From positions 9,469 through 73,468 of the forward strand of contig JBFYNB010000001.1 in assembly GCA_041304605.1 (NCBI GenBank): a stretch of 64,000 nucleotides of DNA, in the 5' to 3' direction. The notes beneath the pieces were generated by a model. It searched no databases. It saw nothing but the letters and a program-made list of their open reading frames with translations, and was not told the DNA's origin. The position numbers and the translations under genes are program-made. Positions 1 through 48,034 of the stretch are shown here, in pieces. Every line of letters begins with the position of its first letter. Position 1 is the stretch's first letter. The stretch comes from Methanomassiliicoccales archaeon. GTDB lineage: Archaea > Thermoplasmatota > Thermoplasmata > Methanomassiliicoccales > UBA472.

Positions 1-915
1 GGGACGTCGGCACCGGCCAAGGTGATATTGCTCGGCGAGCACGCGGTGGTGTTCGGAAAGCCGGCGGTCTCCTTGGCCATAGGTCTTCGCCTCCGCTGCC
101 AGATCAGACCGGCGGCCATCTCGTCATTGAACGGGATGCCGCTCACCCCGCAGAACTACTCATACGTCTCAGCATGTCTGGCCAAGCATGATGCACCTCC
201 GACCGCGGTGCTCACCGACTCCGACTTCCCGTCCGGGTCCGGCCTGGGATCTTCGGCCGCGGTGACCGTGGCTCTACTGGCTGCCCTGAGCGCCTCGAAG
301 GAAGATTTCAGGGAGGACATAGTGGCCAAAGAGGCTTTCGAAGTGGAGTGCGAGGTCCAAGGGCGGGCAAGCCCGATCGACACCTCGACCAGCGCCCACG
401 GGAATGGTATCCTGGTTCAGAGGGAACGCGGTGAGAACTTCCTGTGGGAGATCTCCCGGGACACCCGTCGCTGGTGCGTTCACGATCTCAAGGTACCCAA
501 AATGACCCTGGTGGTCGGCTTCACCGGAAAATCGAAACCGACCGGTCCGCTGGTGGCCAAGGTGAAAAGGTACGTGGACCACAGCACCTTCGCCCGGGAC
601 ATCGTGGACGAGATCGGGGACGTCACCATGGAAGGCGTAAGGCAGATGGCCAAGGGCGACCTGGAGGCCCTCGGAAGGAACATGACCAAGGACCACAAGC
701 TCCTGGCCATACTCGGAGTTTCGTGCCGAGAGCTCGATAAACTGGTGTCCGCAGTTCTCCCCTATTCCTACGGGGCCAAGCTCACCGGGGCCGGGGGCGG
801 CGGCAGCATGGTGGCCTTGACCGACCAGCCGGAAAAGGTCATGGAGGTCATCAGGAAGAAGGGCGGGCAGCCCTTCGCCGCCAAGACCGGGGTCCCCGGA
901 GTGAAAATAGATTAA
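1..915 (+). CDS. mvk: Mevalonate kinase (GHMP kinase), 5' end cut by the window edge
   Basis: Frame 1 is open from nt 1 (GTSAPAKVILLGEHAVVFGKPA). The track ORF is 22..915. GHMP motifs PSGSGLGSSAA and KLTGAGGGGSM are present. Stop TAA at 913-915. Confidence 0.9.
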   Translation, partial: GTSAPAKVILLGEHAVVFGKPAVSLAIGLRLRCQIRPAAISSLNGMPLTPQNYSYVSACLAKHDAPPTAVLTDSDFPSGSGLGSSAAVTVALLAALSASKEDFREDIVAKEAFEVECEVQGRASPIDTSTSAHGNGILVQRERGENFLWEISRDTRRWCVHDLKVPKMTLVVGFTGKSKPTGPLVAKVKRYVDHSTFARDIVDEIGDVTMEGVRQMAKGDLEALGRNMTKDHKLLAILGVSCRELDKLVSAVLPYSYGAKLTGAGGGGSMVALTDQPEKVMEVIRKKGGQPFAAKTGVPGVKID

Positions 916-936
916 AGGGTTTGCGGGAAAGAGGTT

Positions 937-2124
937 TCAGATGAGCTCCTCGAACTCCTTGACCAGCTCGGGGTGCTTCTCCTTGATGGCGATCAGGATG
1001 TTGTGCACCGACATCTGGTCCACGTTGGCGGTGGATAACGTGTCGATCACGCCGTCCAGGGTCTTGTCCGAAAGGGTCAGGAACTTCTCCTTGGCCATCC
1101 AGTTGCGCCACAGGCGGTTCTCCATGGCGTCGCGCCACTTCTTGTCGTAGGGCATCAAAGCCGCTTCGGAGTAATCGTTGGCCTGTGCGCAGTCGCCCAG
1201 CACCTCGCCGGCGAACTTGCCGGCCAGGAGTCCGTTGGCGATCCCGCCTCCGGTTATGGGGTCGATGATGCGCGCGGAGTCCCCTACCAGGATAAGGCCG
1301 TTCATCACCGATCGTTCGACCGGCGGCGATACGGAGACGCCTCCGGCGATGGCCTCCACAGGCTGGCCGCAGCTGAGCCGGGGGTCCTTCTTAATCCAGC
1401 TGTCCAGATACATCTTCACGTCGCCCGGCTTCTTGAGCTTGGAGGCGAGAACGCCGATACCGACGTTGGCGGTGTCGTCGCCCTTGGGGAACACCCAGAT
1501 GTATCCGCCCGGTGCGACCGATCCGATGATGAACTCGCAGTAGTCCGGCTCGGTCTTCAGGTTGACCATGCGGTACTGGTAGCAGGTGGTGATGTCGCCG
1601 GCCTTCAGGGAGGTGTCGATCCCGGCCCAGCGGGCCACCTGGGATTCGAAACCGTCCGCGGCAACGACGCATCCGGCGGTGAGGGTCATGGGCTCGCCCT
1701 CGCGCTTAGCCTTGACCCCGACGACCTTGTCGCCTTCCTTTACCACGTCAACGGCGGCGGTCTTAAGCCAGATCTCGGCGCCAGCACGAGCGGCATCAGC
1801 GGCCATGGCCTTGTCGAAAAGGTGTCTTTCCAAAACCAGTCCGACCTCGGCCCCGGCCTGGCTCTCGTCAATGCGGAAAACGTGCCCGCCCGGCGAGACC
1901 AGCTTGGCCCCGGCGATATCCGCGGAGACCCAGCGCTTGTCGACCGGCACTCCGGCCTTGGCCAGTCCCTTCTTGTTGACGCCCTCGGCGCAACGCAGCG
2001 AGGCGCCGATCTCCTGGCGCTTCTCTATCATCAGGACCCGGGCGCCCTTCTTGGCCGCGTGCTTGGCGGTCATGCTCCCGGAGGGGCCGGCCCCGACCAC
2101 GATCACGTCGTAATCGGTCTTCAT
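937..2124 (-). CDS. Geranylgeranyl (digeranylgeranylglycerophospholipid) reductase, FAD-dependent
   Basis: Track ORF 937..2181, trimmed to ATG at 2124 so the protein begins MKTDYDVIVVGAGPSGS (FAD GxGxxG motif). GGAGGG on the minus strand (2131-2136) lies just upstream. The start overlaps the ferredoxin stop (ATGA). Confidence 0.85.
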   Translation of the reverse strand: MKTDYDVIVVGAGPSGSMTAKHAAKKGARVLMIEKRQEIGASLRCAEGVNKKGLAKAGVPVDKRWVSADIAGAKLVSPGGHVFRIDESQAGAEVGLVLERHLFDKAMAADAARAGAEIWLKTAAVDVVKEGDKVVGVKAKREGEPMTLTAGCVVAADGFESQVARWAGIDTSLKAGDITTCYQYRMVNLKTEPDYCEFIIGSVAPGGYIWVFPKGDDTANVGIGVLASKLKKPGDVKMYLDSWIKKDPRLSCGQPVEAIAGGVSVSPPVERSVMNGLILVGDSARIIDPITGGGIANGLLAGKFAGEVLGDCAQANDYSEAALMPYDKKWRDAMENRLWRNWMAKEKFLTLSDKTLDGVIDTLSTANVDQMSVHNILIAIKEKHPELVKEFEELI

Positions 2125-2294
2125 TTCTTTCCCTCCATCTTCAAGGCGCCGGCAGGGCAGATGCGCACGCAGCGGCCGCACTTGTTGCAGTTATCGTTGA
2201 ACTCCAGCACAATCTCGTTGAGGTAGATGGCGTTCTGGGGGCAGGAGCCCACGCAGGCGCCGCAATGCATGCATTTCTCGATGCTCACGATCAT
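2121..2294 (-). CDS. 2x[4Fe-4S] ferredoxin, 57 aa (absent from the ORF track, below its size cutoff)
   Basis: My own translation of the minus strand gives MIVSIEKCMHCGACVGSCPQNAIYLNEIVLEFNDNCNKCGRCVRICPAGALKMEGKK. It carries two CxxCxxCxxxCP motifs. AGGAGGA lies upstream of the ATG. The stop TGA overlaps the GGR ATG. Confidence 0.8.
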   Translation of the reverse strand: MIVSIEKCMHCGACVGSCPQNAIYLNEIVLEFNDNCNKCGRCVRICPAGALKMEGKK

Positions 2295-2306
2295 TGTAGA
2301 TCCTCC

Positions 2307-3860
2307 TTAGGTGTGCTCCGTTCCCCTGGTCCGTCTCCACTCCTCGATGGGCACGGAGAACTTCTTTTCCACCTGTTCGCGGAACGTCGGTCCGCCATTG
2401 TAGGCGCAGAAGGGAATTATCCTTCCGTCCGGCACCACATAATGGATGGCGCAGCGCTTGACCCTTTCGATATCATAGTTGTACAGGTCCTGGAAGTGCA
2501 TTCCGCCGATGAACATCATCTTCCAGGAGAACTTGGACAGGGACTGCTTGGATTCGTCGCCCATGACCGAGGAGAGCATCTTCAGGAAGGACATGGTGTC
2601 CAATCCCTCCGGCATCTTGTCCTCGTGGATGTACTTCTTCAGCAGGGAGTAGGCCTTCATCTTGGACGGCAGCTTGATCCTGCACCCTTCGGCCTTCTTG
2701 GAGAGCTCATAGAGCTCCTTGAACAGCGGCTCGACGTCCACGAAGTGGGTCAGCGGTATCACATGGTCCTTGTCCTGTACGAAGAGATAGGTGGCCAGTC
2801 CGCAGTGAGGGTGGGTTGTGAAGGCCACCTTGGGCTCGCCTAGTATGGCCGTGGCCAGGGTGGATATCGGCACCACGCTGGGCACCGGGAACCAATCCTC
2901 CTTCTTGATCTGTCCGTTGGTCTGGGCCTCCAGGTCCATGGCCAGGTCGGTAAGGGTGTACCGCTGCTTGGCCAGATCGTCCTTGTTTATCCTTCCGGTG
3001 AAGGCCACCGGCTGGAAGTTCATGCCCCGGATGACATCCGAGTTCTCCAGGGCGAAGCGGAACATGGGGGCGATCTGGTCCTCGTTCAGTCCCTTCACGA
3101 TGACGGGCACCAGGACGATCGACGGACGCATCGCCAGCTTCCGGACGTTCTCCACCACCTTCATCTTCACCTCTAGCATCTTCCGGGCCCTGGTCACCAT
3201 GTATATGTCGTCGTTCATCCCGTCGAACTGCAGGTAGATGGTGTTCAGACCGGCCTCGGCCGCGGCCTTGAGGAATTCGAAATCATTGGCGAACATCAGG
3301 CCGTTAGTGGCGACCTGGATCTGGGCGAAGCCCATCTCCTTGGCCTTCTTGATGACGTCGATGAACTGCGGGTATATCGTCGGTTCGCCGCCCGCGAACT
3401 GTATGGCTGGGCAGGCGACCGGTTTGCTGTCCCTCAGCACCTTCATCATCTTCACGACCTCATCGAAGCTTGGCTCGTAAACATAGCCAGCCTGATTGGC
3501 GTTGGCGAAGCAGATCGGGCACTTCATGTTGCATCGGTTGGTCAGGTCCAGATTGGCCAACGATGTGTGGCTAAGGTGAAGGTTGCAGAGCCCGCAATCG
3601 TCGGGGCAGACCTTGGCGTTCGTGATGAACGGGTTCTCGACCCCTACGCCGTCGAAGGCGAACTGCTCGGACCTGAGGTAAAGCTCCACGTCCGACCAGA
3701 CTATGTCACTGAAATGCCCGTGCTCCGGGCATTCCTTCTCCATGACCACCTTGCCATCCTTCTCCAATATCTTGGCGGTGATGATCTTCCGGCACTCGGG
3801 ACAGAGGGACTGCGTCTCCTTAGGTAATCCTCTGGGTAATGTACTTTCTTTGGCAATCAC
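2307..3860 (-). CDS. tes: Radical SAM enzyme, probable tetraether lipid synthase (Tes / GDGT-MAS family)
   Basis: Track ORF 2307..3989. The start is trimmed to GTG 3860 because the upstream 43 codons run into the AT-rich divergent promoter and the trmB-like gene. Motifs: radical SAM NRCNMKCPICF, rubredoxin-like knuckles CPECRK...CPEHGH, and an auxiliary CPDDCGLC. The family call rests on synteny with the ferredoxin and GGR. The radical SAM call is confident (0.9). The Tes assignment is 0.6. Confidence 0.6.
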   Translation of the reverse strand: MIAKESTLPRGLPKETQSLCPECRKIITAKILEKDGKVVMEKECPEHGHFSDIVWSDVELYLRSEQFAFDGVGVENPFITNAKVCPDDCGLCNLHLSHTSLANLDLTNRCNMKCPICFANANQAGYVYEPSFDEVVKMMKVLRDSKPVACPAIQFAGGEPTIYPQFIDVIKKAKEMGFAQIQVATNGLMFANDFEFLKAAAEAGLNTIYLQFDGMNDDIYMVTRARKMLEVKMKVVENVRKLAMRPSIVLVPVIVKGLNEDQIAPMFRFALENSDVIRGMNFQPVAFTGRINKDDLAKQRYTLTDLAMDLEAQTNGQIKKEDWFPVPSVVPISTLATAILGEPKVAFTTHPHCGLATYLFVQDKDHVIPLTHFVDVEPLFKELYELSKKAEGCRIKLPSKMKAYSLLKKYIHEDKMPEGLDTMSFLKMLSSVMGDESKQSLSKFSWKMMFIGGMHFQDLYNYDIERVKRCAIHYVVPDGRIIPFCAYNGGPTFREQVEKKFSVPIEEWRRTRGTEHT

Positions 3861-3890
3861 TATTGCACCCCGGGCTGATACTTCCGCACG

Positions 3891-3933
3891 ATAATATAAT
3901 ATTATTGTAGCTAGATTAGCTACATGTTGAGCT
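3891..3933. promoter_or_regulatory. Bidirectional AT-rich promoter block (ATAATATAATATTATT, 3891-3906) plus a perfect 17-bp palindrome GTAGCTA-GAT-TAGCTAC (3907-3923) and a third GAGCTA copy (3929-3934)
   Basis: Read directly from the sequence. It lies between the divergent radical-SAM operon (start 3860) and the trmB-like gene (start 3934). The sequence is certain; the function is inferred. Confidence 0.5.
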
Positions 3934-4671
3934 ATGAACATAATTGACGTTCTCAGACTGGATATAGGGGATGTAGAGAAGGAATTCACTCAGATAGCTT
4001 CCGTCCTTGGGAATTTGGGGCTTTCAAATTATGAAGCGAGGTCCTACGTGGCCCTTGTACTTAGGACGCACGGAACGGCCGAGGAGGTCGCCGAGCTGTC
4101 CATGATCCCCCGTACCTCGGCCTACAAATCACTTCAATCCTTGGTGACCAAAGGATTCGCTCAGGAGACGGACGGCCGCCCCGCGATCTACTATCCTCTG
4201 GACATAGAGGAACTGCGCGAGAGGACCATGAACGAGATGAACGGAATGTTCGCCAAGCTGAGCTCGATCAAGGGGCTTCTCTCGGAAAAAGGGACGCCAG
4301 AGCTGGTGTACACCATCTATGGGCGAAAGAAGGTGCTGACGAAGATAGGTGAGATGCTCGATACCGCCCGGACGACATTCATGATATCCTCGCCCAAGAT
4401 GCAGGACATCCGCTCCGAGCTATCCGATCGCTTCAAGGAGGCCCAGGCCAGAGGGGTGAAGATCATCATAATAACCGAACCGGCGGTCAAGGTCCCCTCG
4501 GCCGACGAGGTGTTCCGCAGGAAGGGTCTGATCGCCACGGACGTGATAGTGGACGGAACGTTGGCCATGATAGCCAGCGAGGACATGGACCTGTGCGGTT
4601 TCTCCGACAATCCGCTCATAGCGGCGCATCTTGAGAACTTTCTGCATATGGTGAAAGGCTCCAAAGCGTAA
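3934..4671 (+). CDS. TrmB-family transcriptional regulator (winged helix plus C-terminal effector-like domain)
   Basis: Track ORF, 245 aa. The N-terminal wHTH LGLSNYEARSYVALVLRTHGTAEEVAELSMIPRTSAYKSLQSLVTKGF is typical of TrmB-like proteins. Confidence 0.75.
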   Translation: MNIIDVLRLDIGDVEKEFTQIASVLGNLGLSNYEARSYVALVLRTHGTAEEVAELSMIPRTSAYKSLQSLVTKGFAQETDGRPAIYYPLDIEELRERTMNEMNGMFAKLSSIKGLLSEKGTPELVYTIYGRKKVLTKIGEMLDTARTTFMISSPKMQDIRSELSDRFKEAQARGVKIIIITEPAVKVPSADEVFRRKGLIATDVIVDGTLAMIASEDMDLCGFSDNPLIAAHLENFLHMVKGSKA

Positions 4672-4721: not shown

Positions 4722-7700
4722 ATGACCGAAAGAGGCTCGACGCGTGCATTGTCCCGGGACCGCCGGGCGCAGATGCCCTTCTCCCTGATCGCCATAGTTC
4801 TTATCATCGTTTCCAGCCTTTCCGCGGCCTTGATATCCGACCTACGCGACGGGTCTCATGAGGTTAGTCTGACAAGGGAGGAGATCGAGCTCATGGACGA
4901 GGCATCCTCGGAGGCCCAGAGGCAGGTTCAGGGGATGGCCTGGCAGTCATTATTGGCGGCGTGCACCGGTGATTCGCTGAACGAGAGCGCGATCTCCTCG
5001 CGGTTCCAACGCGAACTAGGGCCCATGGTAGCATCCATAAACCCGAGATCCCGGTCCGGCATGGATGTGGAGGTGAACGTTAGCGAAGTTCGACTCTCTT
5101 TCCTGCGCCTTCCCCTGGACCAGGATGTCGCCGGGGGAGAATTCACGGACAAATACGTTCCAGCCTACGTCGGCCTGGCCGGTTCCATTGCCATCAAAAT
5201 ATCCTCCGCCAACGGCAATCTCAGCCGGGATTATCCCGTCGAGGACCAGGGCAAGGTTCCCTGGCCTCTTCTGAACGATCGGATGAATGATTTCGAGGGG
5301 TCGGTCTCTGACGGCCTGGGTGACCTCAGTACCATGGTAAGCTATCTGCTGGAGTCGCTGGCGGCCTACCGCACCGTACAAGGTTGGGGCAGCGGCATTC
5401 TCGGGCAGGAAGGATTGGCCGAAACTGTGGCCAACAGGGACCTCACGAACGCCATCGACCTCGGCCTGATCGTTCTCCAGATGAAGCATTTCCGCCACGC
5501 CACCCCTTGCTACGGCATGAACACGGACGTATTGGACGGTGAGGGTTGCTGGCAGTTCGTCGAGGAGAATCTCAGGGGAGGCGGGACCGTCGATCCGGCG
5601 GACATCTTCCTCGGGCTTTACGGCTATGACCAACTGGATTGGCGCCTGGTGTTCTCCCAGGCCTTGAACTCGGCCATAGAGCGCCTTTCATTGAGATGGA
5701 TGGAGTGCGTCGGCCTGATAAAGCTGTTCGAGATCGCGGAGAAGGCCGGCGAGGAAGTATTCTCTTTCGCCAACGACCTGATTGATCGCACTTTCGACGT
5801 GGACCTGGCAGAGGAACATTTCAAGGATTGGCTGGAGGAGACGTTCGAAGAGGCCGGCGTTCCCGATGTATTATACAGATATCTAGGGGCGGGCGTTCCG
5901 GACGGGTCGATATTTGTTGATGAGGCGGTCATCAACCTGATCGACGCTGATGGGGAATCAACCCCGATATCCGTGGGAGGCCTGGTGGTTCTTGATATCC
6001 CCTTGACCGATGTCCTGGCCTGGGATGGTTGGGGTGATTTCCACGAACAGTACAAGAAGGGCACCCTGGAGATACTGAATGGTATCAGAAGAGAGATCGC
6101 CGTGGTGGCTGAGCAGGTCTCCATGAGCATGTTCCTCCCTCCTGGAGAACTGTCGCTGGACCCTCATGACGGGTTCTCCTTCCTGGAGGAAATGAAGGAT
6201 TCGTTGAACACGGCCCTCGATCAGAAGGACACCTGGATGAGGGCGGCCGTGAGCTCCGCGGGATCCGCCGTGGTGACCGCCGACCCTCTGGCCGAGGCCA
6301 CCAAGGCCGAGTTCCTGGAGAACCGGGAAGCCATCCTGCTCAGGCAGCAGGCGTTGAGTTCCATGGTCTCCAGCACGGCGGAGCAACTTCTGTCGGAAGC
6401 CCTCTCGAGATGCGATAACACGGACATTCCCTGGGACGAAAACCTGAAGGTGCTGGAAGGTCGCATTGTGGGGGATGCCGCCTGGAACGCCAACGAAATG
6501 ATAGAATGGACCTTCGACGAGCACGCTCGGTTCCTCGAGGAACACTTCATGGCCGGACTCAGCGATGGATCATCCTCCGGTACGGTATCGTCCTGGATGG
6601 CCGATGTGATCGCCCGGACCGGCGATCCATACGCAGGCATCTCGGCGGTGCTCAGCGACGATGTCTCCCAAATGTTGTCCGAGATGTCCAACGGCATGCG
6701 CATGCGGGGGGATCGGATGGAGGTAACGCTTCCCGCAACGCCGTACTTTTCCCTCCTAGGTCCAGACGGCCGGGTGCACTCGGAATCCCTGCGGGTGGAG
6801 ACGATATATCCCAACGGGAGCCCTTCGGGTTCCTGGCTCTCATCGTCCATCCTGGACCCCAGTGAGCATCGCGGCTCTCCGGAGTCCGGCGTACAGGTCC
6901 ACGACACTGACGTTCTCGACGCCAAGGCGGCGTCCTATCAATCGGTCTGGAAGGTGGACTTCTCCGGCGAGATATCGATATCGTTGTCACCCGGCGGAGA
7001 GGTCGGCCAGGTGCTCCCACTGCGGCTGGAAAGGCAACTGGGGTTCGAATCCGAACTTGCTGTGGCGGCGCTTACCGGTCACGCTCTGATGGGAGTGAGC
7101 TACGTCAATGTGAACACGTTCGGCCAACAGCTGTCGGAGATCATCGATTCGCTGCTCCGTCCGCTCCAGGAGGGAATGGGAACGCTCACCTCCTATCTGC
7201 GGTCGTTCTACCGGCTCCTACGGGGAGCGATCACCGACCTGGTCGAGATGGGCAGGGATGTCCTGGACACGCTCTCCGCGATGCTCGGGACCATGATCGA
7301 GGAACTACAGGACTTCATCCGCTCGGCCATGGGTTTCGTGGAGTCCAAGGTGGCCAAGCTGTTGCTGGACATCCTGGGCGAGAGATGCGTCACGCTGAGC
7401 TTCCTTGGTGTGGACATGAAGGTGAATTTGAGGCCCAAGGACCTGGACTACCGGGAGGTCGGGGTACCAGCTTCCATCTCCCTTACCTTCAAGACGGAAG
7501 ATTGCCGCATCGACGTGACCACCAGGTTGATCAAGGGCCAAGGAAACCTCAGCCTTCTCACGAACGCCTCCCTGCGGGGCAAGGATTGGGTCGTCTCCGT
7601 GGTGGTCGACCCCTTCATGGACGTGTTCCGGCACATGGTAGAGGTCCGGGGATTGGTGGACGGGGCCTGCGTGGAACTGGTCATGCCCGAGGTGGTTAGC

Positions 7701-8885
7701 TACAGAAAGGTCACGTTCTCCCTGGCCGACATACCGGGGGTGGGGGCGTTGCTGTCCAACATCCCGCTCCCCATACCCGGCCTGAAAGGGGCCGTGAACG
7801 CCGGGGTCTACATCAAGGTTCTGGAGGGCAGGACCGATCAGGTGGTCATAAACGAGTACGAGCTGAATCCCGCGGGCGAGGACGCCGGCAGGGAGTGGGT
7901 GGAGCTTTACAATCCCACCACGGAGGCGGTCGACCTGACCGGGTGGACCATCGAGACCCGGCACGGGGTCCAGGGCCTGGGATCGCTGGGCGGGGTCCTG
8001 CTGCCCCGAACGCGGATGGTGTATCAGTTCTCGGGACAGGCCCTGGACAACATCGGGGAAGGTTTCCCGTTCGAGGAAAGCCTGGTCCTCCGGGACGAGC
8101 GCGGCCGGAGGGTGGACAGCGCCCCTTTCTCCACCGACTGCTGGAACGACGACCGGACCTGGCAGAGGGCCAAGGACGCGGCCGACCGCTGGGAGTTCAA
8201 GAGCGGTTCTAGAGGATCTTCCAACGGGAGGGATATCTTCTCCATCCTGGACCTCGACACCGTCGAGCAGGTGTACTTCGCCGCGGTCACCGAGTCGCTT
8301 TACCAGCTTTCCTCTGGGGACCTGAGCATGGAAGCCCTGGCGGTAACTATGGAAACCGCAATGCTGCGGATGCTGGAAAGGCTCGCCTCCAGCATACTCG
8401 ACAAGGAGGTGGCGGCCGGGCTGTTCGTGGAGGTGGCGGTGACCGAGGCGTCGTCGACCGCGAAGTCAGGGATGCGGATGGAGGTCATCTGGCGCTGCGG
8501 AACCCTGCGGGACGCGCTGCATGAACTGGCCAGTTCGGCCAGGCCGCTGACGCTATCCCTGGGCAACCCCTTCCAGGCCTATCTGGACGGACTGCCCTCC
8601 GCCAGCGGCATCTGGCTGGCCATGTCCGCTTTCGGCGCGGTCGGCGTTCCCAATATGATCCGCGCCCCCGGTTACAGCACGGAGGTAAGATACCAGGCCT
8701 CGGTGGCGGTGGATCTCGGCGTTCTAGCCACGGTCTTCGGCCTCAGGACCTCCGGATGGTCCATGGAGGCGGGGGTCAAGATAACCGGGGTGCCGGCGAC
8801 AGCCGTCCCAATGTTCAAGGCTCCTTACGGAACGACGATGGACATTTGGCTGTGCAAAGTGACCGTTCAGGGGGTATCAGCTTGA
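4722..8885 (+). CDS. Very large (1387 aa) membrane-anchored acidic protein with an internal lamin-tail domain; function unknown
   Basis: Uninterrupted track ORF with native-like GC3 bias. The N-terminus has a basic stretch and one hydrophobic helix (PFSLIAIVLIIVSSLSAALI). I recognise no enzymatic motif. An LTD signature lies near aa 1043-1160. Confidence 0.85.
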   Translation: MTERGSTRALSRDRRAQMPFSLIAIVLIIVSSLSAALISDLRDGSHEVSLTREEIELMDEASSEAQRQVQGMAWQSLLAACTGDSLNESAISSRFQRELGPMVASINPRSRSGMDVEVNVSEVRLSFLRLPLDQDVAGGEFTDKYVPAYVGLAGSIAIKISSANGNLSRDYPVEDQGKVPWPLLNDRMNDFEGSVSDGLGDLSTMVSYLLESLAAYRTVQGWGSGILGQEGLAETVANRDLTNAIDLGLIVLQMKHFRHATPCYGMNTDVLDGEGCWQFVEENLRGGGTVDPADIFLGLYGYDQLDWRLVFSQALNSAIERLSLRWMECVGLIKLFEIAEKAGEEVFSFANDLIDRTFDVDLAEEHFKDWLEETFEEAGVPDVLYRYLGAGVPDGSIFVDEAVINLIDADGESTPISVGGLVVLDIPLTDVLAWDGWGDFHEQYKKGTLEILNGIRREIAVVAEQVSMSMFLPPGELSLDPHDGFSFLEEMKDSLNTALDQKDTWMRAAVSSAGSAVVTADPLAEATKAEFLENREAILLRQQALSSMVSSTAEQLLSEALSRCDNTDIPWDENLKVLEGRIVGDAAWNANEMIEWTFDEHARFLEEHFMAGLSDGSSSGTVSSWMADVIARTGDPYAGISAVLSDDVSQMLSEMSNGMRMRGDRMEVTLPATPYFSLLGPDGRVHSESLRVETIYPNGSPSGSWLSSSILDPSEHRGSPESGVQVHDTDVLDAKAASYQSVWKVDFSGEISISLSPGGEVGQVLPLRLERQLGFESELAVAALTGHALMGVSYVNVNTFGQQLSEIIDSLLRPLQEGMGTLTSYLRSFYRLLRGAITDLVEMGRDVLDTLSAMLGTMIEELQDFIRSAMGFVESKVAKLLLDILGERCVTLSFLGVDMKVNLRPKDLDYREVGVPASISLTFKTEDCRIDVTTRLIKGQGNLSLLTNASLRGKDWVVSVVVDPFMDVFRHMVEVRGLVDGACVELVMPEVVSYRKVTFSLADIPGVGALLSNIPLPIPGLKGAVNAGVYIKVLEGRTDQVVINEYELNPAGEDAGREWVELYNPTTEAVDLTGWTIETRHGVQGLGSLGGVLLPRTRMVYQFSGQALDNIGEGFPFEESLVLRDERGRRVDSAPFSTDCWNDDRTWQRAKDAADRWEFKSGSRGSSNGRDIFSILDLDTVEQVYFAAVTESLYQLSSGDLSMEALAVTMETAMLRMLERLASSILDKEVAAGLFVEVAVTEASSTAKSGMRMEVIWRCGTLRDALHELASSARPLTLSLGNPFQAYLDGLPSASGIWLAMSAFGAVGVPNMIRAPGYSTEVRYQASVAVDLGVLATVFGLRTSGWSMEAGVKITGVPATAVPMFKAPYGTTMDIWLCKVTVQGVSA
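7842..8200 (+). other. Lamin-tail domain (LTD) segment inside the giant protein
   Basis: VVINEYELNPAGEDAGREWVELYNPTTEAVDLTGWTIETRHG...LVLRDERGRRVDSAPF matches the NE..NP.G.D...EW.ELYN......L.GW pattern of LTDs. Confidence 0.7.
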
Positions 8886-14762: not shown

Positions 14763-16394
14763 TTGTTGAGGAGGGACGTGCGGACATCGCCGAACGAAGC
14801 GTCTACGCTGAAGGGCGAGACCGAGCTTTTCTTATCCAAGGGCCTAGCCGATTTTGAGAGAATGCATCTGGGCCTCTTGAAAAAAGAGGTGGAACGGGCG
14901 AAAGCCTCTCCGGTATACGGTCCCGACCTGCCGGACATCAATTCCTGGGAAGACCTGCAAAAGCTTCCGGCCATCGGCTACGATCGCCTGGACGAGGTTT
15001 TTAACACCCACGGGCTGGAAAGGTCCCTTCTGGTCCCCGCCGACCGTTATTATCACACCTCCGGGTACACCGGGGTGTCCAAGCGCATCTATTACAGCGC
15101 CAAGGACATCGAATGGATGGCCCACAGCTATGCGCTCTTCGGTTATATCGTAGGAGCGCGGCCGGGCATGATCGGCTGGAGCATCGCCGGAGAGGAGCCT
15201 CTGGTATCCGGCCCGACGCTTCACAATGCCAGCAAGGTGCTGGGGGCCGATTTTTTGTCGACGCTCTTAGCCCAGGACACCGACCTGCGCAAGGCGGTTT
15301 CCAAAGCTTCCCGATCCAAGCCGTTCGACATCATGGCCGGTACCCCTCTGCTGTTCTACGTTATTGGGCGCATCGCTCACGAGGAGGGCTATTTCCGGAG
15401 CATGATCGAGAGGGCGGCCCGGAACAACTACCATCTGCCGGGACCGCTGGCCAAGCTTACGGCCAGTATTATGCTGGCCGGAATGGACCTGGACCGGCTC
15501 CGGGAGAACATCAGGGCGGTTAAGCTGGCCATCACCTATGCCGAGCCGCTCAGCCCCTACCTGGACTCTCTCATGGAGCTCTATCCGAACATGAAGGCGT
15601 TCGACGTGCTGGGAAGCACCGAGTGCCCTCTGATCGCCTCACAGTACTCGCCAGGCCAGAAAGGCCTGCAGCTCTTTCTGCCAGGAGTCGTCGCCGAGCT
15701 GGCCGACCCCCGAGATGTGCAGAGGTCCAAGAAGGAGAGGACGCCGCTGAAGGCCGTGCCTTGGTCGCGGTGGAAGGCCGGGATGACCGGGGAGCTGATA
15801 ATCAGCCGTCCCGGGGAATGCCTGCCTTTGCTACGCTACGCCACTGGGGACCAGATCGAGGTCTTGGATCCCATGTGCTCCACGGAGATCAGGATGGAGG
15901 AGGGCGTCCGTCATATCGTTTCACCATCCATCCGGGTCATGGGCCGATCGGTGGACACACTGGACTTCGAGGCACAGGACGAGAGCGGCAACTATCTCGG
16001 GTGCAAGATATACTCCCGCCACATCCAGGAGGCGTTGCAGCGTTCCGACAACGTGCGATGGTGGGAACTGTACGACGTCGGCGGCCGTCCGTCGAGGCTG
16101 GTGTTCCTGATCATTCCGGAGAACCCGGTGGAGGACGAGGAAGCCTTCCGCCGCCTGGTGGAGAAGAAGCTGCTCAACGAGTGCAACGACCTGCTTGGAA
16201 CGCTCAGGATGGGCCGGGACCTGGACCGCCTGCAGATCATCTTGGCCAAGCCTTCCGCGTACGTCCACGTGCAATCCGAGATAGATGAGCGGGCCAAGGC
16301 CGGCCGGTCGCTGGGGCAGCTGAAGCCGAAGCACATCTACCGATACGAGGACGAGGCGAAGTTCCAGGAGCGGCTGAGAGGAAGGATGGCCTGA
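14763..16394 (+). CDS. ANL-superfamily adenylate-forming ligase (PaaK / coenzyme F390 synthetase-like)
   Basis: Track ORF, 543 aa. Motifs HTSGYTGVSKR (A3), LGSTECP (A5) and RYATGDQIEV (A8). The start is uncertain: TTG 14763 or GTG 14778. Confidence 0.7.
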   Translation: MLRRDVRTSPNEASTLKGETELFLSKGLADFERMHLGLLKKEVERAKASPVYGPDLPDINSWEDLQKLPAIGYDRLDEVFNTHGLERSLLVPADRYYHTSGYTGVSKRIYYSAKDIEWMAHSYALFGYIVGARPGMIGWSIAGEEPLVSGPTLHNASKVLGADFLSTLLAQDTDLRKAVSKASRSKPFDIMAGTPLLFYVIGRIAHEEGYFRSMIERAARNNYHLPGPLAKLTASIMLAGMDLDRLRENIRAVKLAITYAEPLSPYLDSLMELYPNMKAFDVLGSTECPLIASQYSPGQKGLQLFLPGVVAELADPRDVQRSKKERTPLKAVPWSRWKAGMTGELIISRPGECLPLLRYATGDQIEVLDPMCSTEIRMEEGVRHIVSPSIRVMGRSVDTLDFEAQDESGNYLGCKIYSRHIQEALQRSDNVRWWELYDVGGRPSRLVFLIIPENPVEDEEAFRRLVEKKLLNECNDLLGTLRMGRDLDRLQIILAKPSAYVHVQSEIDERAKAGRSLGQLKPKHIYRYEDEAKFQERLRGRMA

Positions 16395-16451
16395 CCGCGC
16401 TCGCGATGTTCTGGTGAAGCTAATATATCGGTTGGGGCGAATCACCCTTTC

Positions 16452-17219
16452 ATGCTGACCCCCGAGCACATATTCAAAATGGCCGCGGCCAAGCACGCGA
16501 CGGTAGGCATAGGCCTGGGGGAAGATTCTCGCAAGGTTCTGAAGAGCGTCCGCGACGCGGAGAAGAAGGGATACGCCCGCGTGATGACCTTCGATTCCGC
16601 CGAGGGCATGATCACCGCGCTGCGCCGTGGCGAGGTGGACGCGGTGGTGCGCGGGGACCTCAGCGCGAACAAGGCCATGGCCGAGGTGAAGGCCCAGTTC
16701 TCCCTGGGCCACCTTCTGCGGGCGGCCCTGATGCAGCCCAAGGGCGGTCGCATGTTCTTCCTGGCGCCGGTCGGTGTTGACGAGGGATGGGGCGTGGAGC
16801 AGAAACTGGAGTTCATACGTTACTCCGCCCCTCTGTTCCGCCAGCTGGGCATCGGTATGGAGGCCGGGGTGCTATCCGGCGGCCGTCTGGGCGACATCGG
16901 CAGGAGCGCCGAGGTGGACCGCACCATAAAGGAGGCTATCGAGGTCGAGCGGCTTGCCAAAGGGGAGGGTTTCAACGTGGAGCACTGCCAGATCCTGATC
17001 GAGGAGGCGGTGCGCAAGAAGAACCTGGTCCTCGCTCCGGACGGCATCACCGGCAACATAATATTCCGGACCATGCACCTGGTGGACGGTTGCGTGTCCA
17101 TGGGCGCCCCGATACTGAACCTGGATAAGATTTTCATCGACACATCGAGGGCCAAGAGGTGCTATACCGACTCCATCGCCCTGGCCTCCGCCCTGGCCCG
17201 CAGGGAAAATGATTATTGA
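16452..17219 (+). CDS. Phosphate acyltransferase (PTA/PTB)-fold protein, MtxX / methanogen-marker-4-like
   Basis: Track ORF, 255 aa. APDGITGNIIFRTM resembles the PD..GN motif of the PTA/PTB family. The MtxX-like assignment is from memory and needs an HMM check. Confidence 0.5.
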   Translation: MLTPEHIFKMAAAKHATVGIGLGEDSRKVLKSVRDAEKKGYARVMTFDSAEGMITALRRGEVDAVVRGDLSANKAMAEVKAQFSLGHLLRAALMQPKGGRMFFLAPVGVDEGWGVEQKLEFIRYSAPLFRQLGIGMEAGVLSGGRLGDIGRSAEVDRTIKEAIEVERLAKGEGFNVEHCQILIEEAVRKKNLVLAPDGITGNIIFRTMHLVDGCVSMGAPILNLDKIFIDTSRAKRCYTDSIALASALARRENDY

Positions 17220-17249: not shown

Positions 17250-17732
17250 ATGAGATTAGAGATAGACGGGGAGTTCGCGGGGATCAGATTCTCCGCCTGC
17301 CATTTCATAGCTGGGCACAACAAGTGCGGACGCCTGCACGGGCACACCTACGTGGTCAGCCTGAAGCTGCACGGGGACATGGGGAAGGACGGCATGGTCA
17401 TGGACTTCATTCCCCTGAAGAAGGAGCTGCGGGCCATCGCCGAGGAGCTGGACCACCGCGTCCTCATCCCAGCCAATTCCAAGAAGATCACCGTGGTCCT
17501 GGGCGAGGAGGTCTTCATCAAGGCCGACGGCAAGAAGTACGCCCTGCCCAAGGAGGATGTTGTTCTGTTGCCGACCGAAGAGAGCAGCGCCGAGGAGCTG
17601 TGCCATTTCATTCTCGGTAAGGTCCTGGACAACGTGGACTTCCCATCCAACGTCAAGGAGGTCGAGGTGGGCGTTCACGAGGAGCTGGGACAGAGCGCCT
17701 GGGTGAGCAAGAAGCTGGGGGGAAGGAAATGA
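17250..17732 (+). CDS. queD: 6-carboxy-5,6,7,8-tetrahydropterin synthase (PTPS family)
   Basis: Track ORF, 160 aa. CHFIAGHNKCGRLHGHTY metal/His motif. Overlaps queC by 4 nt. Confidence 0.85.
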   Translation: MRLEIDGEFAGIRFSACHFIAGHNKCGRLHGHTYVVSLKLHGDMGKDGMVMDFIPLKKELRAIAEELDHRVLIPANSKKITVVLGEEVFIKADGKKYALPKEDVVLLPTEESSAEELCHFILGKVLDNVDFPSNVKEVEVGVHEELGQSAWVSKKLGGRK

Positions 17733-18397
17733 AGGCGATCTGCCTGCTCTCCGGAGGGCTGGATTCCACGGTCACTCTGGCCTACGCCCTTCATCAGGGA
17801 TACGAGGTCACCGCCCTAACCATCAATTACGGGCAAAGGCACAAGCGGGAGCTGGACGCTGCCCGTGCCGTCGCCGCCCACTACAAGGTGCCGCACATCG
17901 TGATGGAGTTCCCGCTCACCGGGTTCCGCAGCGCCCTCACCGATGATTCGATCCCCATCCCCGACCGGAGGTCCGAGGAGATCGGGTACGACATACCGGA
18001 GACGTACGTTCCGGCCAGGAACATCGTCTTCCTCAGTCTGGCTGCCGGGCTGGCCGAATCGGTGGACGCCAGCGCGGTCTTCATCGGGGCCAACGCTATC
18101 GATTACAGCGGCTACCCGGACTGTCGTCCGGAGTTCTTCCAATCGTTCGAGAACATGCTGGAGGTCGGGACGAAGAGGGGAGTGCTGGGTCACCCGGTAC
18201 GCATCGAGCACCCCATTCTCAAAAATACCAAGGCGGAGATCGTGAAGATGGGCATCAAGCTGGAAGCTCCGCTTCACCTCACCTGGAGCTGCTACCGCGG
18301 CGGCGAGAAGGCCTGCGGCCACTGCGACTCCTGCGTCCTGCGGCTGAAAGGCTTCAGGGAGGCCGGGGCCAAGGACCCAGTGCCCTACGAGGGCTGA
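17729..18397 (+). CDS. queC: 7-cyano-7-deazaguanine (preQ0) synthase
   Basis: Track ORF, 222 aa. SGGLDS PP-loop and C-terminal Zn site CGHCDSCVLR. Confidence 0.9.
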   Translation: MKAICLLSGGLDSTVTLAYALHQGYEVTALTINYGQRHKRELDAARAVAAHYKVPHIVMEFPLTGFRSALTDDSIPIPDRRSEEIGYDIPETYVPARNIVFLSLAAGLAESVDASAVFIGANAIDYSGYPDCRPEFFQSFENMLEVGTKRGVLGHPVRIEHPILKNTKAEIVKMGIKLEAPLHLTWSCYRGGEKACGHCDSCVLRLKGFREAGAKDPVPYEG

Positions 18398-18399
18398 GG

Positions 18400-19029
18400 A
18401 TGCTCATCAACGAGATGTTCCTCTCCATACAAGGCGAAGGAAGGACCATGGGCCTGCCTACGGTGTTCGTGCGCCTGAGCGGCTGCAATCTCGATTGCCG
18501 CTGGTGCGATACGCGTTACGCCGAGGAGGGCGGGTCGGAGCTATCCGTGGACGAGGTCCTAGCCGGTGTCAACGGCTACCGCACCAGGCATGTGTGCTTG
18601 ACAGGCGGGGAACCGTTATGGCACGAAGAAACGCCCGAGCTCATCTCCCGGCTGCTGGGGGAAGGCAAGCATGTTTCCCTGGAGACCAACGGTTCGCTTC
18701 CCATTGCGGGCCTACCGGACGACCCGCAGCTGATGATCAGCATGGACTACAAGTGCCCCTCCTCCGGCATGGAGGGCCGCATGCTTCTGGAGAACCTCGA
18801 GCATCTGAGGCCCAAGGACCAGCTGAAGTTCGTGGTGGCGGACAAGGAAGATCTGGAAAGGGCCGAGGACGTTCTGCGAAAGTACGAACCGAACTGTCCG
18901 GTGATACTCACCCCGGTGGGCGGTCTTACGCTCGCTCCAGTGGTGGAGTTCGTTCTGAAACGAAGGTTAGAGGTAAGGGTGCTGCCGCAGCTGCACAAGC
19001 TCATCTGGGGCGAGAGGCGCGGCGTTTGA
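18400..19029 (+). CDS. queE: 7-carboxy-7-deazaguanine synthase (radical SAM)
   Basis: Track ORF, 209 aa. FLSIQGEG and cluster motif CNLDCRWCDT. Confidence 0.9.
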   Translation: MLINEMFLSIQGEGRTMGLPTVFVRLSGCNLDCRWCDTRYAEEGGSELSVDEVLAGVNGYRTRHVCLTGGEPLWHEETPELISRLLGEGKHVSLETNGSLPIAGLPDDPQLMISMDYKCPSSGMEGRMLLENLEHLRPKDQLKFVVADKEDLERAEDVLRKYEPNCPVILTPVGGLTLAPVVEFVLKRRLEVRVLPQLHKLIWGERRGV

Positions 19030-44166: not shown

Positions 44167-44242
44167 TGGAGCCACTAGGGAGATTTGAACTCCCGGCCTG
44201 CTGATTACAAGTCAGCCGCTCTACCAGCTGAGCTATAGTGGC
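44167..44242 (-). tRNA. tRNA-Thr (anticodon UGU), CCA encoded
   Basis: Reverse complement GCCACTATAGCTCAGCTGGTAGAGCGGCTGACTTGTAATCAGCAGGCCGGGAGTTCAAATCTCCCTAGTGGCTCCA folds as a cloverleaf. 7-bp acceptor stem. Anticodon arm GCTGA/CTTGTAA/TCAGC. T arm GGGAG/TTCAAAT/CTCCC. Confidence 0.9.
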
Positions 44243-46227: not shown

Positions 46228-46899
46228 TCAAGCCCGTCCAGTTCGTTCCCGGCCCCGGCGCCTTCGTTCGGTATTGTCCTCCAGAAGCTCTTTGGTGTAC
46301 CTCATGTGGCACTTCGAGCACAGAGTGCGCAGGTTGGCCGGGTGTTCGGTCCCTCCCCGCGATCTTGGAACGATGTGATGGATCTCGTACGGGACGCGCC
46401 TTCCCTTGACCTCTATGCCGCATTCCGTGCAGCGCCCGCCGTCCCGGCGCTTGATGTACCTCCGGATCCGTCTCCACAACCAGTTGCGCACCTTCACGTA
46501 CAGCTCCGAATCCGGCCCTATCGACAGATAGTCCTCGGTGGTTCCTTCCGGCCTCCAGGCCTTGCTCTCTTTCGAGCGGTACAGCGCCAGGAAGTTGTGC
46601 CAGGACACGCACGTCTGATGCGCCTGCTCTTCCCGATGCTTACGGCCGCATCCCTCGCACTCTATCCAGAAGCTCCTGGCAGGTTCACATTTCAGCTTGG
46701 GCGCCCACTGCCTGAACGGACATATGTCGGCCATCTCGTCATCGCAATGCAGGTGGATATGCAGGTCCAAGCCGCGTATCTGGTCGTCCCGGAACAGAGC
46801 CCGGTGGTCCTGGTACCTATCCCTCGAACCGTTGTGCAGATGCATTAGGTAGCAGGAGGAGGGGCGGTTCCTAACCAGACGGTGATCGCAGAGCTTCAT
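46228..46899 (-). CDS. HNH endonuclease-domain protein with a Cys/His-rich N-terminal region
   Basis: Track ORF, 223 aa. C-terminal RCTECG...YEIHHIVPRSRGGTEHPANLRTLCSKCH (HNH). The N-terminal 150 aa are unassigned. GC3 bias looks native. Confidence 0.75.
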   Translation of the reverse strand: MKLCDHRLVRNRPSSCYLMHLHNGSRDRYQDHRALFRDDQIRGLDLHIHLHCDDEMADICPFRQWAPKLKCEPARSFWIECEGCGRKHREEQAHQTCVSWHNFLALYRSKESKAWRPEGTTEDYLSIGPDSELYVKVRNWLWRRIRRYIKRRDGGRCTECGIEVKGRRVPYEIHHIVPRSRGGTEHPANLRTLCSKCHMRYTKELLEDNTERRRRGRERTGRA

Positions 46900-47948: not shown

Positions 47949-48023
47949 GGGCGGGTGGCCTAGTCTGGATATGGCAGCAGCCTCCTAAGCTGCAGGTCGG
48001 GGGTTCGAATCCCTCCCCGCTCG
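47949..48023 (+). tRNA. tRNA-Arg (anticodon CCU), no encoded CCA
   Basis: GGGCGGGTGGCCTAGTCTGGATATGGCAGCAGCCTCCTAAGCTGCAGGTCGGGGGTTCGAATCCCTCCCCGCTCG. Acceptor GGGCGGG/CCCGCTC. Anticodon arm GCAGC/CTCCTAA/GCTGC. T arm GGGGG/TTCGAAT/CCCTC. Confidence 0.9.
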
Positions 48024-48034
48024 CTTTATTTTTC
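48024..48034 (+). terminator. Oligo-T tract CTTTATTTTTC after tRNA-Arg
   Basis: T3 and T5 runs directly after the tRNA 3' end. Confidence 0.6.

Follow-up and report, generated by a model that had tools for sequence, protein, structure and literature searches.

In Methanosarcina acetivorans, the gene for the tetraether lipid synthase Tes (MA_1486) adjoins that of a ferredoxin (MA_1485), which is described as required to activate the geranylgeranyl reductase (GGR) encoded next to it (MA_1484) (PMC8941075, PMC9385802, PMC12042123). The position of MA_1486 next to this ferredoxin gene was one of three reasons for choosing MA_1486 as a candidate, and MA_1486 expressed alone in Methanococcus maripaludis led to the formation of glycerol dialkyl glycerol tetraether (GDGT) and glycerol trialkyl glycerol tetraether (GTGT) as well as macrocyclic archaeol (PMC8941075). 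In a 2025 engineering study, ma1484-1485 was used together with tes in Escherichia coli (PMC12042123). The substrates of Tes are fully saturated, and the enzyme consumes two molecules of S-adenosylmethionine (SAM) per C-C bond; the rubredoxin domain and the N-terminal cluster domain are exposed at its surface, and a role of these domains in electron transfer was suggested by the authors of the structural study (PMC9433317). Here we analyze a 64,000-nucleotide stretch of DNA from a Methanomassiliicoccales archaeon (GenBank assembly GCA_041304605.1; contig JBFYNB010000001.1, positions 9,469 to 73,468; referred to below as the window), in which the same three gene families lie next to each other at positions 937 to 3860. 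The likeness to M. acetivorans, which we base on the published description of its genes, had been pointed out in an initial annotation of the window made before any database search, and the literature drawn on there (i.e., the need of GGR for the ferredoxin and the neighboring Tes gene) was accurate (PMC8941075).

On the basis of the common gene trio and of the pathway logic, we regard the locus as the same system in another archaeal order (i.e., Methanomassiliicoccales), namely, a tes-fdx-ggr operon for the last steps of tetraether membrane lipid synthesis. Together with the proposals on the ferredoxin, the promoter, and the regulator that are presented below, this is the best explanation of the locus that we can offer, and we assign it a probability of roughly 85%. 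The Tes-ferredoxin-GGR arrangement is already known from Methanosarcina, and the operon of the window is itself standard; the only new element is a conserved palindrome with a neighboring regulator gene, which probably control the operon.

The three genes are arranged head to tail on the minus strand, in the order tes (2307 to 3860; 517 amino acids; GTG start), ferredoxin gene (2121 to 2294; 57 amino acids), and ggr (937 to 2124; 395 amino acids; ATG start). The spacer between tes and the ferredoxin gene (2295 to 2306; 12 nucleotides, minus strand) reads GGAGGATCTACA and provides a Shine-Dalgarno-like ribosome-binding site, GGAGG, 7 nucleotides before the ferredoxin ATG (at 2294), while the ferredoxin stop codon and the ggr start codon share the sequence ATGA (2121 to 2124). 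This tight packing, which the initial annotation had described with the same coordinates, makes a single transcript probable, and the three genes are probably translated from it. In close relatives, the spacer measures 11 to 14 nucleotides at the same position. The GTG at 3860 was accepted as the correct start of tes because homologues of 517 amino acids begin with MIAK or MLTK at the aligned position and because the gene was called with this length in a near-identical public contig; a longer alternative open reading frame (ORF), reaching to 3989, would cross the AT-rich intergenic region and enter the neighboring gene. A scan of positions 800 to 4100 for sigma-70 promoters and intrinsic terminators, which is unsuited to archaeal promoters, returned counts not above those of shuffled sequence.

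The radical SAM protein encoded by tes is, by homology, an orthologue of Tes/GDGT-MAS. It scored 654.7 bits against the NCBIfam equivalog NF045702 ("tetraether lipid synthase Tes"; cutoff, 450) and 356 bits against the next model, TrsS, the latter score being under the cutoff (490). The best match among solved structures was GDGT-MAS MJ0619 of Methanocaldococcus jannaschii (PDB 7TOL/7TOM; E = 2.4e-153; residues 8 to 511), to which the protein is 47% identical over its full length, and Pfam detected the domains Radical_SAM (1.2e-24) and Zn_ribbon_HMPTM (9e-21). The metal sites of MJ0619 were mapped onto the window protein by alignment, with the site definitions taken from the structural study (PMC9433317). 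The rubredoxin-like site C20-X2-C23-X20-C44-X2-H47 (motifs CPEC and CPEH) has the spacing of C9X2C12X20C33X2H36 in MJ0619, the N-terminal cluster residues C85, C89, C92, and H95 (motif CPDDCGLC) correspond to C73, C77, C80, and a His, and the CX3CX2C motif of the radical SAM cluster consists of C110, C114, and C117 (motif NRCNMKCPICF). M454 aligns to the labile Met439 of the C-terminal cluster and Y474 to the strictly conserved Tyr459. All of these residues are invariant in the alignment, as are C353, C470, and C485, which appear to be available as ligands of the C-terminal cluster, an assignment drawn from the alignment rather than read from a structure. The window protein differs from MJ0619 in having about 11 extra N-terminal residues and a Gly in place of Cys438, the latter being common to all aligned Thermoplasmatota relatives. 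The sequence motifs and the Tes/GDGT-MAS family that the initial annotation had proposed for this protein were thus both recovered, and the comparison with MJ0619 argues against membership in an unrelated subfamily.

The middle gene encodes a ferredoxin with two CxxCxxCxxxCP motifs for two [4Fe-4S] clusters, as had been proposed from the sequence; Pfam placed Fer4 in two stretches of the protein (4.4e-15). None of the eight cysteines and neither of the two prolines varies among 72 orthologous sequences (47 to 96% identity to the window copy), in which the substitutions relative to the window copy number 152, 141, and 406 at the first, second, and third codon positions, respectively. The invariant residues and the bias toward third positions in this sequence comparison indicate that the 57-amino-acid ORF is more than a chance ORF. 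The initial annotation had also presented the gene as unannotated and easily missed by pipelines. This part does not hold, because gene callers recognized the exact 57-amino-acid gene in one NCBI and one Logan assembly, and its orthologues were called as genes in other contigs of relatives.

The third gene product is a GGR, for which sequence comparison supports an assignment at the subfamily level. The Pfam domains GGR_cat (1.8e-30) and FAD_binding_3 (9e-17) were detected, the GxGxxG motif for FAD takes the form GAGPSG (residues 11 to 16), and the score against TIGR02032 was 225 bits (cutoff, 158.8). The protein matched the digeranylgeranylglycerophospholipid reductase of Thermoplasma acidophilum (PDB 3OZ2; E = 3.9e-114) over its full length, and the two have in common the motifs GxGxxG and PGGYxWxFP as well as the cysteine of RCxEG. 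Activity with NADH was reported for the T. acidophilum enzyme (PMC9385802), whereas ggr of the window is paired with a ferredoxin gene.

These identities suggest the following course of the pathway. The FAD-dependent (di)geranylgeranyl(glycerophospholipid) reductase would saturate the geranylgeranyl chains of the diether lipid, a step supported by homology, with the 57-amino-acid ferredoxin as its putative electron donor by analogy with MA_1484/MA_1485 of M. acetivorans. Tes, predicted to carry a rubredoxin-like iron and three [4Fe-4S] clusters, would then couple the termini of the saturated phytanyl chains to yield macrocyclic archaeol and GDGT, using two SAM and hence two low-potential electrons per C-C bond. 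Since Tes acts on fully saturated substrates, the genes follow a pathway logic in which GGR comes first and Tes second. The same ferredoxin may also reduce Tes, a step that we infer and for which we see about an even chance.

The conservation of the operon was assessed in the best 80 genome loci containing relatives of Tes, all of them from Thermoplasmatota (53 to 91% identity; designated by L numbers), in each of which homologues of five window genes were located; synteny beyond Thermoplasmatota was taken from the literature alone. Among the 73 loci with at least 500 nucleotides downstream of tes, the ferredoxin gene directly follows tes in 71, at distances ranging from a 5-nucleotide overlap to a gap of 43 nucleotides except in L027, and ggr then follows the ferredoxin gene in 70 of these 71. 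The ferredoxin is thus co-conserved with both of its neighbors. The exceptional gap of L027 is an artifact, since tes is broken there into fragments (6001 to 7557; three fragments in different reading frames, reflecting a pseudogene or assembly errors). In one clade, ggr lies 50 to 773 nucleotides from the ferredoxin gene (L068, L070, L071, and L074) or is absent within 3 kb (L072), and the ferredoxin gene remains 40 to 43 nucleotides from tes in all five loci. Its persistence beside tes in loci from which ggr has been displaced makes the ferredoxin a concrete candidate for the physiological reductant of Tes.

Several individual loci have features of their own. L014 contains a second tes from the same assembly as L008, 84% identical to the copy in the operon; it stands without ferredoxin, ggr, and regulator genes, is a recent duplicate, and is reminiscent of the MA_1114 paralogue of M. 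acetivorans. In L033 (1314 to 6179), tes has neither a ferredoxin gene nor ggr beside it, yet the palindrome described below is kept 63 nucleotides upstream; a gene for a Ras-family small GTPase lies upstream and a B12-binding radical SAM gene lies downstream on the opposite strand. Three further loci (L055, L063, and L065), the titles of which name Ruminococcus sp. CAG:579, Firmicutes bacterium CAG:194, and Dialister hominis, respectively, carry the archaeal tes-fdx-ggr operon. Their Tes sequences were placed in a clade of mostly Methanomethylophilaceae-labeled sequences in a distance tree, and the contigs are probably mis-binned or mislabeled.

The 73-nucleotide region between tes (3860) and a divergent gene (3934) contains a perfect palindrome, TGTAGC-N7-GCTACA (3906 to 3924). 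At up to two mismatches, this is the single site in the 64-kb window; no second one, as might mark a wider regulon, was found there. The palindrome abuts an AT-rich, TATA-like block (3891 to 3905, minus strand; ATAATATTATATTAT), which lies directly 3' of it on the tes strand and about 30 to 45 nucleotides from both start codons. Across the loci, a conserved TTAAnT/TTATAT core is located at a fixed distance from the palindrome. Judging from these positions, the TATA-like block probably acts as a promoter. Seventy-nine loci had enough upstream sequence to be scored, 40 with an adjacent divergent gene of the TrmB family and 39 without. The palindrome (at least 10 of 12 half-site matches) is present in 40/40 loci of the former set, 59 to 72 nucleotides upstream of the tes start, the background being 63 sites in 889 kb. 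In the latter set, 30 of the 39 loci, mostly of host-associated Methanomethylophilaceae, have no site within 200 nucleotides of tes. The half-sites carry approximately 1 to 1.9 bits per position and the spacer approximately 0 to 0.2 bits. An RNA hairpin would need complementarity only, so that conserved half-sites with a free spacer point to the site of a dimeric protein, and the palindrome is probably the operator of the tes-fdx-ggr operon, that is, a candidate site at the tes promoter. Further weak sites in the loci of relatives occur within coding regions and seem to be chance matches or conserved parts of those regions. An Rfam search of the intergenic region detected no known RNA family, and no description of the palindrome was found in the literature.

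The divergent gene (3934 to 4671, plus strand) encodes a TrmB-family protein of 245 amino acids (PF01978, 8.4e-20; 70.8 bits; cutoff, 25.6), which matches TrmBL2 in the PDB (E = 2.5e-8). In its AlphaFold (AF2) model (mean predicted local distance difference test [pLDDT] score, 84), a winged helix, a long helix, and, at the C-terminal end, a PLD-like domain are present, and Foldseek retrieved TrmBL2 (5BOX; E = 7e-15) and TrmB (3QPH; 1.3e-9) with this model. The protein thus resembles TrmB, TrmBL1, and TrmBL2 of Thermococcales and TrmB of Halobacterium in its N-terminal winged helix, long dimerization-type helix, and PLD-like domain. However, the similarity to TrmBL2 is distant at the sequence level, and the full sugar-binding domain of TrmB is missing (245 amino acids versus the 338 to 349 positions of the TrmB equivalog models). 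PF11495 matched partially and below its cutoff (20.5 versus 22.2 bits), all NCBIfam TrmB/TrmBL equivalogs remained far under their cutoffs, and according to the model only the PLD-like subdomain of the TrmB C-terminal region is present. The gene neighbors also differ, being lipid genes rather than the sugar genes found with TrmB/TrmBL regulators.

TrmB-family proteins bind inverted repeats with spacers of 3 to 8 nucleotides, and they activate from sites upstream, and repress from sites downstream, of the B recognition element (BRE)/TATA box (PMC4158304). The candidate palindrome of the window is likewise an inverted repeat near a TATA-like box, although its sequence differs from the described sites TACT-N3-AGTA, TATCAC-N5-GTGATA, and TACT-N7-8-GAGTA. 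With respect to tes, it is situated upstream of the TATA-like box; with respect to the regulator gene, it intervenes between this box and the start codon. Both control of tes and autoregulation are made plausible by this position and by the known behavior of the family. Transcription probably starts at the TATA-like box abutting the palindrome, and the palindrome is probably bound by the divergently encoded TrmB-family regulator. The regulator may control tes and itself from this site, a proposal in which the binding, the promoter position, and the sensed signal are presumed. Of the 79 scorable loci, 40 have the regulator gene next to tes in divergent orientation, and of five homologues looked up from the regulator side, four are divergent from tes-fdx-ggr. 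The fifth (L084, 3063 to 4996, from a Thermoplasmata assembly; 52% identity) immediately precedes, in the same orientation, a gene for a GGR-family paralogue (30% identity to the window GGR), in a locus with neither tes nor a ferredoxin gene; this arrangement connects the regulator family with isoprenoid reductases a second time. In the literature search, neither a connection of a TrmB-family protein with tetraether or GGR genes nor a transcription factor acting on tes was found, and a 2014 review of TrmB does not mention lipids (PMC4158304). As a whole, the proposal that this protein is a dedicated regulator of tetraether synthesis that acts through the palindrome and regulates itself in Methanomassiliicoccales and related Thermoplasmatota, with the ferredoxin as the physiological donor of both Tes and GGR, is a tentative one, to which we give slightly less than even odds.

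Covariation between the recognition helix of the regulator and the half-sites was also considered. Residue 63 varies among Ala, Val, and Met and the half-sites among TGTAGC, ATTAGC, and TGTAGT; the pattern follows the clades and has exceptions, and for this reason we do not count it as evidence.

Other readings have been weighed for each component of the locus. The name of the Pfam domain Zn_ribbon_HMPTM, as well as the label "7,8-dihydro-6-hydroxymethylpterin dimethyltransferase" that JGI gives to some homologues, would make the radical SAM protein a pterin methyltransferase (HMPTM). This identity is ruled out for the Tes family by published structure and assays, the study of MJ0619 having found the pterin methylase annotation incorrect and having shown lipid binding and tetraether formation (PMC9433317); we give it practically no weight, and the Pfam and JGI names are legacies of the incorrect annotation. 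It is improbable, though less so, that the protein is a Tes-family paralogue with another or narrower product (e.g., macrocyclic archaeol only, or a role in the unusual backbone-modified tetraethers of Methanomassiliicoccales) rather than a GDGT synthase. MA_1114, the second Tes homologue of M. acetivorans, yielded only traces of macrocyclic archaeol (PMC8941075), paralogues occur in the lineage (L014), and the lipid products of the window enzyme are predicted from its sequence only. On the other hand, its score is far over the NF045702 cutoff, it retains all catalytic and ligand residues of MJ0619, its gene has the context of MA_1486 with ferredoxin and GGR genes, and judged across the 80 loci this gene is the conserved-operon copy. 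A much closer question is whether the ferredoxin serves GGR only, with Tes reduced by the general ferredoxin/flavodoxin pool and included in the operon through the common pathway and regulation. Radical SAM enzymes require a low-potential one-electron donor, one such electron being needed for each turnover. The ferredoxin does not follow GGR where the latter is displaced or missing (L068, L072, and L074) but remains beside Tes, on which two surface-exposed extra metal centers are available (PMC9433317). Yet GDGT was formed in M. maripaludis when MA_1486 was expressed without the ferredoxin of its locus (PMC8941075), copies of tes without a ferredoxin gene exist, and the sole role assigned to the M. 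acetivorans ferredoxin in three reports is with GGR (PMC8941075, PMC12042123, PMC9385802). No term naming an in vitro reductant of Tes was found in the Tes structure paper (PMC9433317). We therefore regard a ferredoxin dedicated to GGR as a serious possibility, if not quite one chance in two.

For the palindrome, the competing explanation is a conserved promoter or 5'-end element (e.g., a portion of the BRE or a hairpin of the transcript), with the TrmB-family gene controlling something else, such as the LTD-domain (lamin-tail domain) gene of 1366 to 1460 amino acids that follows it, conserved and on the same strand. In lineages without an adjacent regulator, the palindrome is still retained upstream of tes, which fits this explanation: it occurs within 200 nucleotides of tes in 9 of the 39 such loci and 221 to 230 nucleotides from tes in four more (L048, L051, L054, and L067), and the TATA-like box again follows it in all of these. 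The regulator homologue of L084, whose gene has no palindrome upstream, fits it as well. However, conserved half-sites around a freely varying 7-nucleotide spacer are the pattern of a dimeric DNA-binding protein and not of a hairpin, the sites of TrmB-family proteins have the same architecture (PMC4158304), the palindrome is present in all 40 loci with an adjacent regulator, and the homologue in L084 directly precedes a GGR-family gene. We consider the promoter-element explanation the less likely one and prefer the palindrome as the operator of the regulator. Four further points, together with the loci just mentioned, the M. maripaludis result, and the predicted status of the lipid products, weigh against the operon and its proposed control as presented here. 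The ferredoxin gene is absent beside tes in 2 of the 73 loci (L014 and L033), and the synteny of GGR and ferredoxin genes was reported to be absent in Crenarchaeota (PMC9385802). The window GGR scored 441 bits against the Thermoplasmatales-specific equivalog NF041160 (cutoff, 780), and for this reason its assignment was made at the subfamily level and by structural homology. Finally, the link between the regulator and the palindrome is drawn from the nucleotide sequences of the loci.

The operon adds little by itself, but it shows that the Tes-ferredoxin-GGR arrangement is near universal in Thermoplasmatota, including the methanogens of the order Methanomassiliicoccales from gut and sediment. 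The ferredoxin could improve GDGT yields in engineered hosts. If the regulatory proposal is true, the regulator would determine the amount of diether lipid that undergoes saturation and coupling to membrane-spanning lipid. The palindrome and the TrmB-family gene provide a testable entry to the archaeal control of tetraether content, a question of relevance to membrane adaptation and to palaeoclimate proxies based on GDGT, and the conserved candidate operator and its regulator are the part most worth experiment.

The operon is bounded by the divergent TrmB-family gene with its conserved palindrome on one side and by a convergent gene for mevalonate kinase (mvk; 1 to 915, plus strand) on the other. 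The convergence had been noted in the initial annotation and is evident in the sequence, with 21 nucleotides between the end of mvk (915) and the ggr stop codon. The 5' end of mvk is cut by the edge of the window, the frame being open from base 1; the product scored 177.8 bits against TIGR00549 (cutoff, 163) and has 310 amino acids in the near-identical public contig L081. A convergent mvk just downstream of ggr is also found in the closest relatives (L001 to L013) and in several other Methanomassiliicoccales loci. On the opposite side, a gene (4722 to 8885, plus strand) for a 1387-amino-acid protein with an N-terminal hydrophobic segment and an LTD domain comes after the TrmB-family gene in the same orientation. 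This pairing recurs in L081, L087, L088, and L089, as well as in L086 with a Na+/H+ exchanger gene between the two.

The other genes of the window are ordinary housekeeping genes (i.e., those for aminoacyl-tRNA synthetases; diphthamide, queuosine-precursor, leucine, and arginine biosynthesis; transporters; and glycosyltransferases), and two tRNA genes are present (tRNA-Thr, 44167 to 44242; tRNA-Arg, 47949 to 48024). Two consecutive ORFs of 543 and 255 amino acids (14763 to 17219, plus strand), which gave no Pfam match at E = 1e-5, are flanked by a diphthamide synthesis gene on one side and a queD-queC-queE-like cluster (17250 to 19029) on the other. A stand-alone HNH endonuclease gene (46228 to 46899, minus strand) lies between M42 peptidase and FKBP genes, within approximately 2 kb of tRNA-Thr and 1 kb of tRNA-Arg, and may be the remnant of a mobile element.

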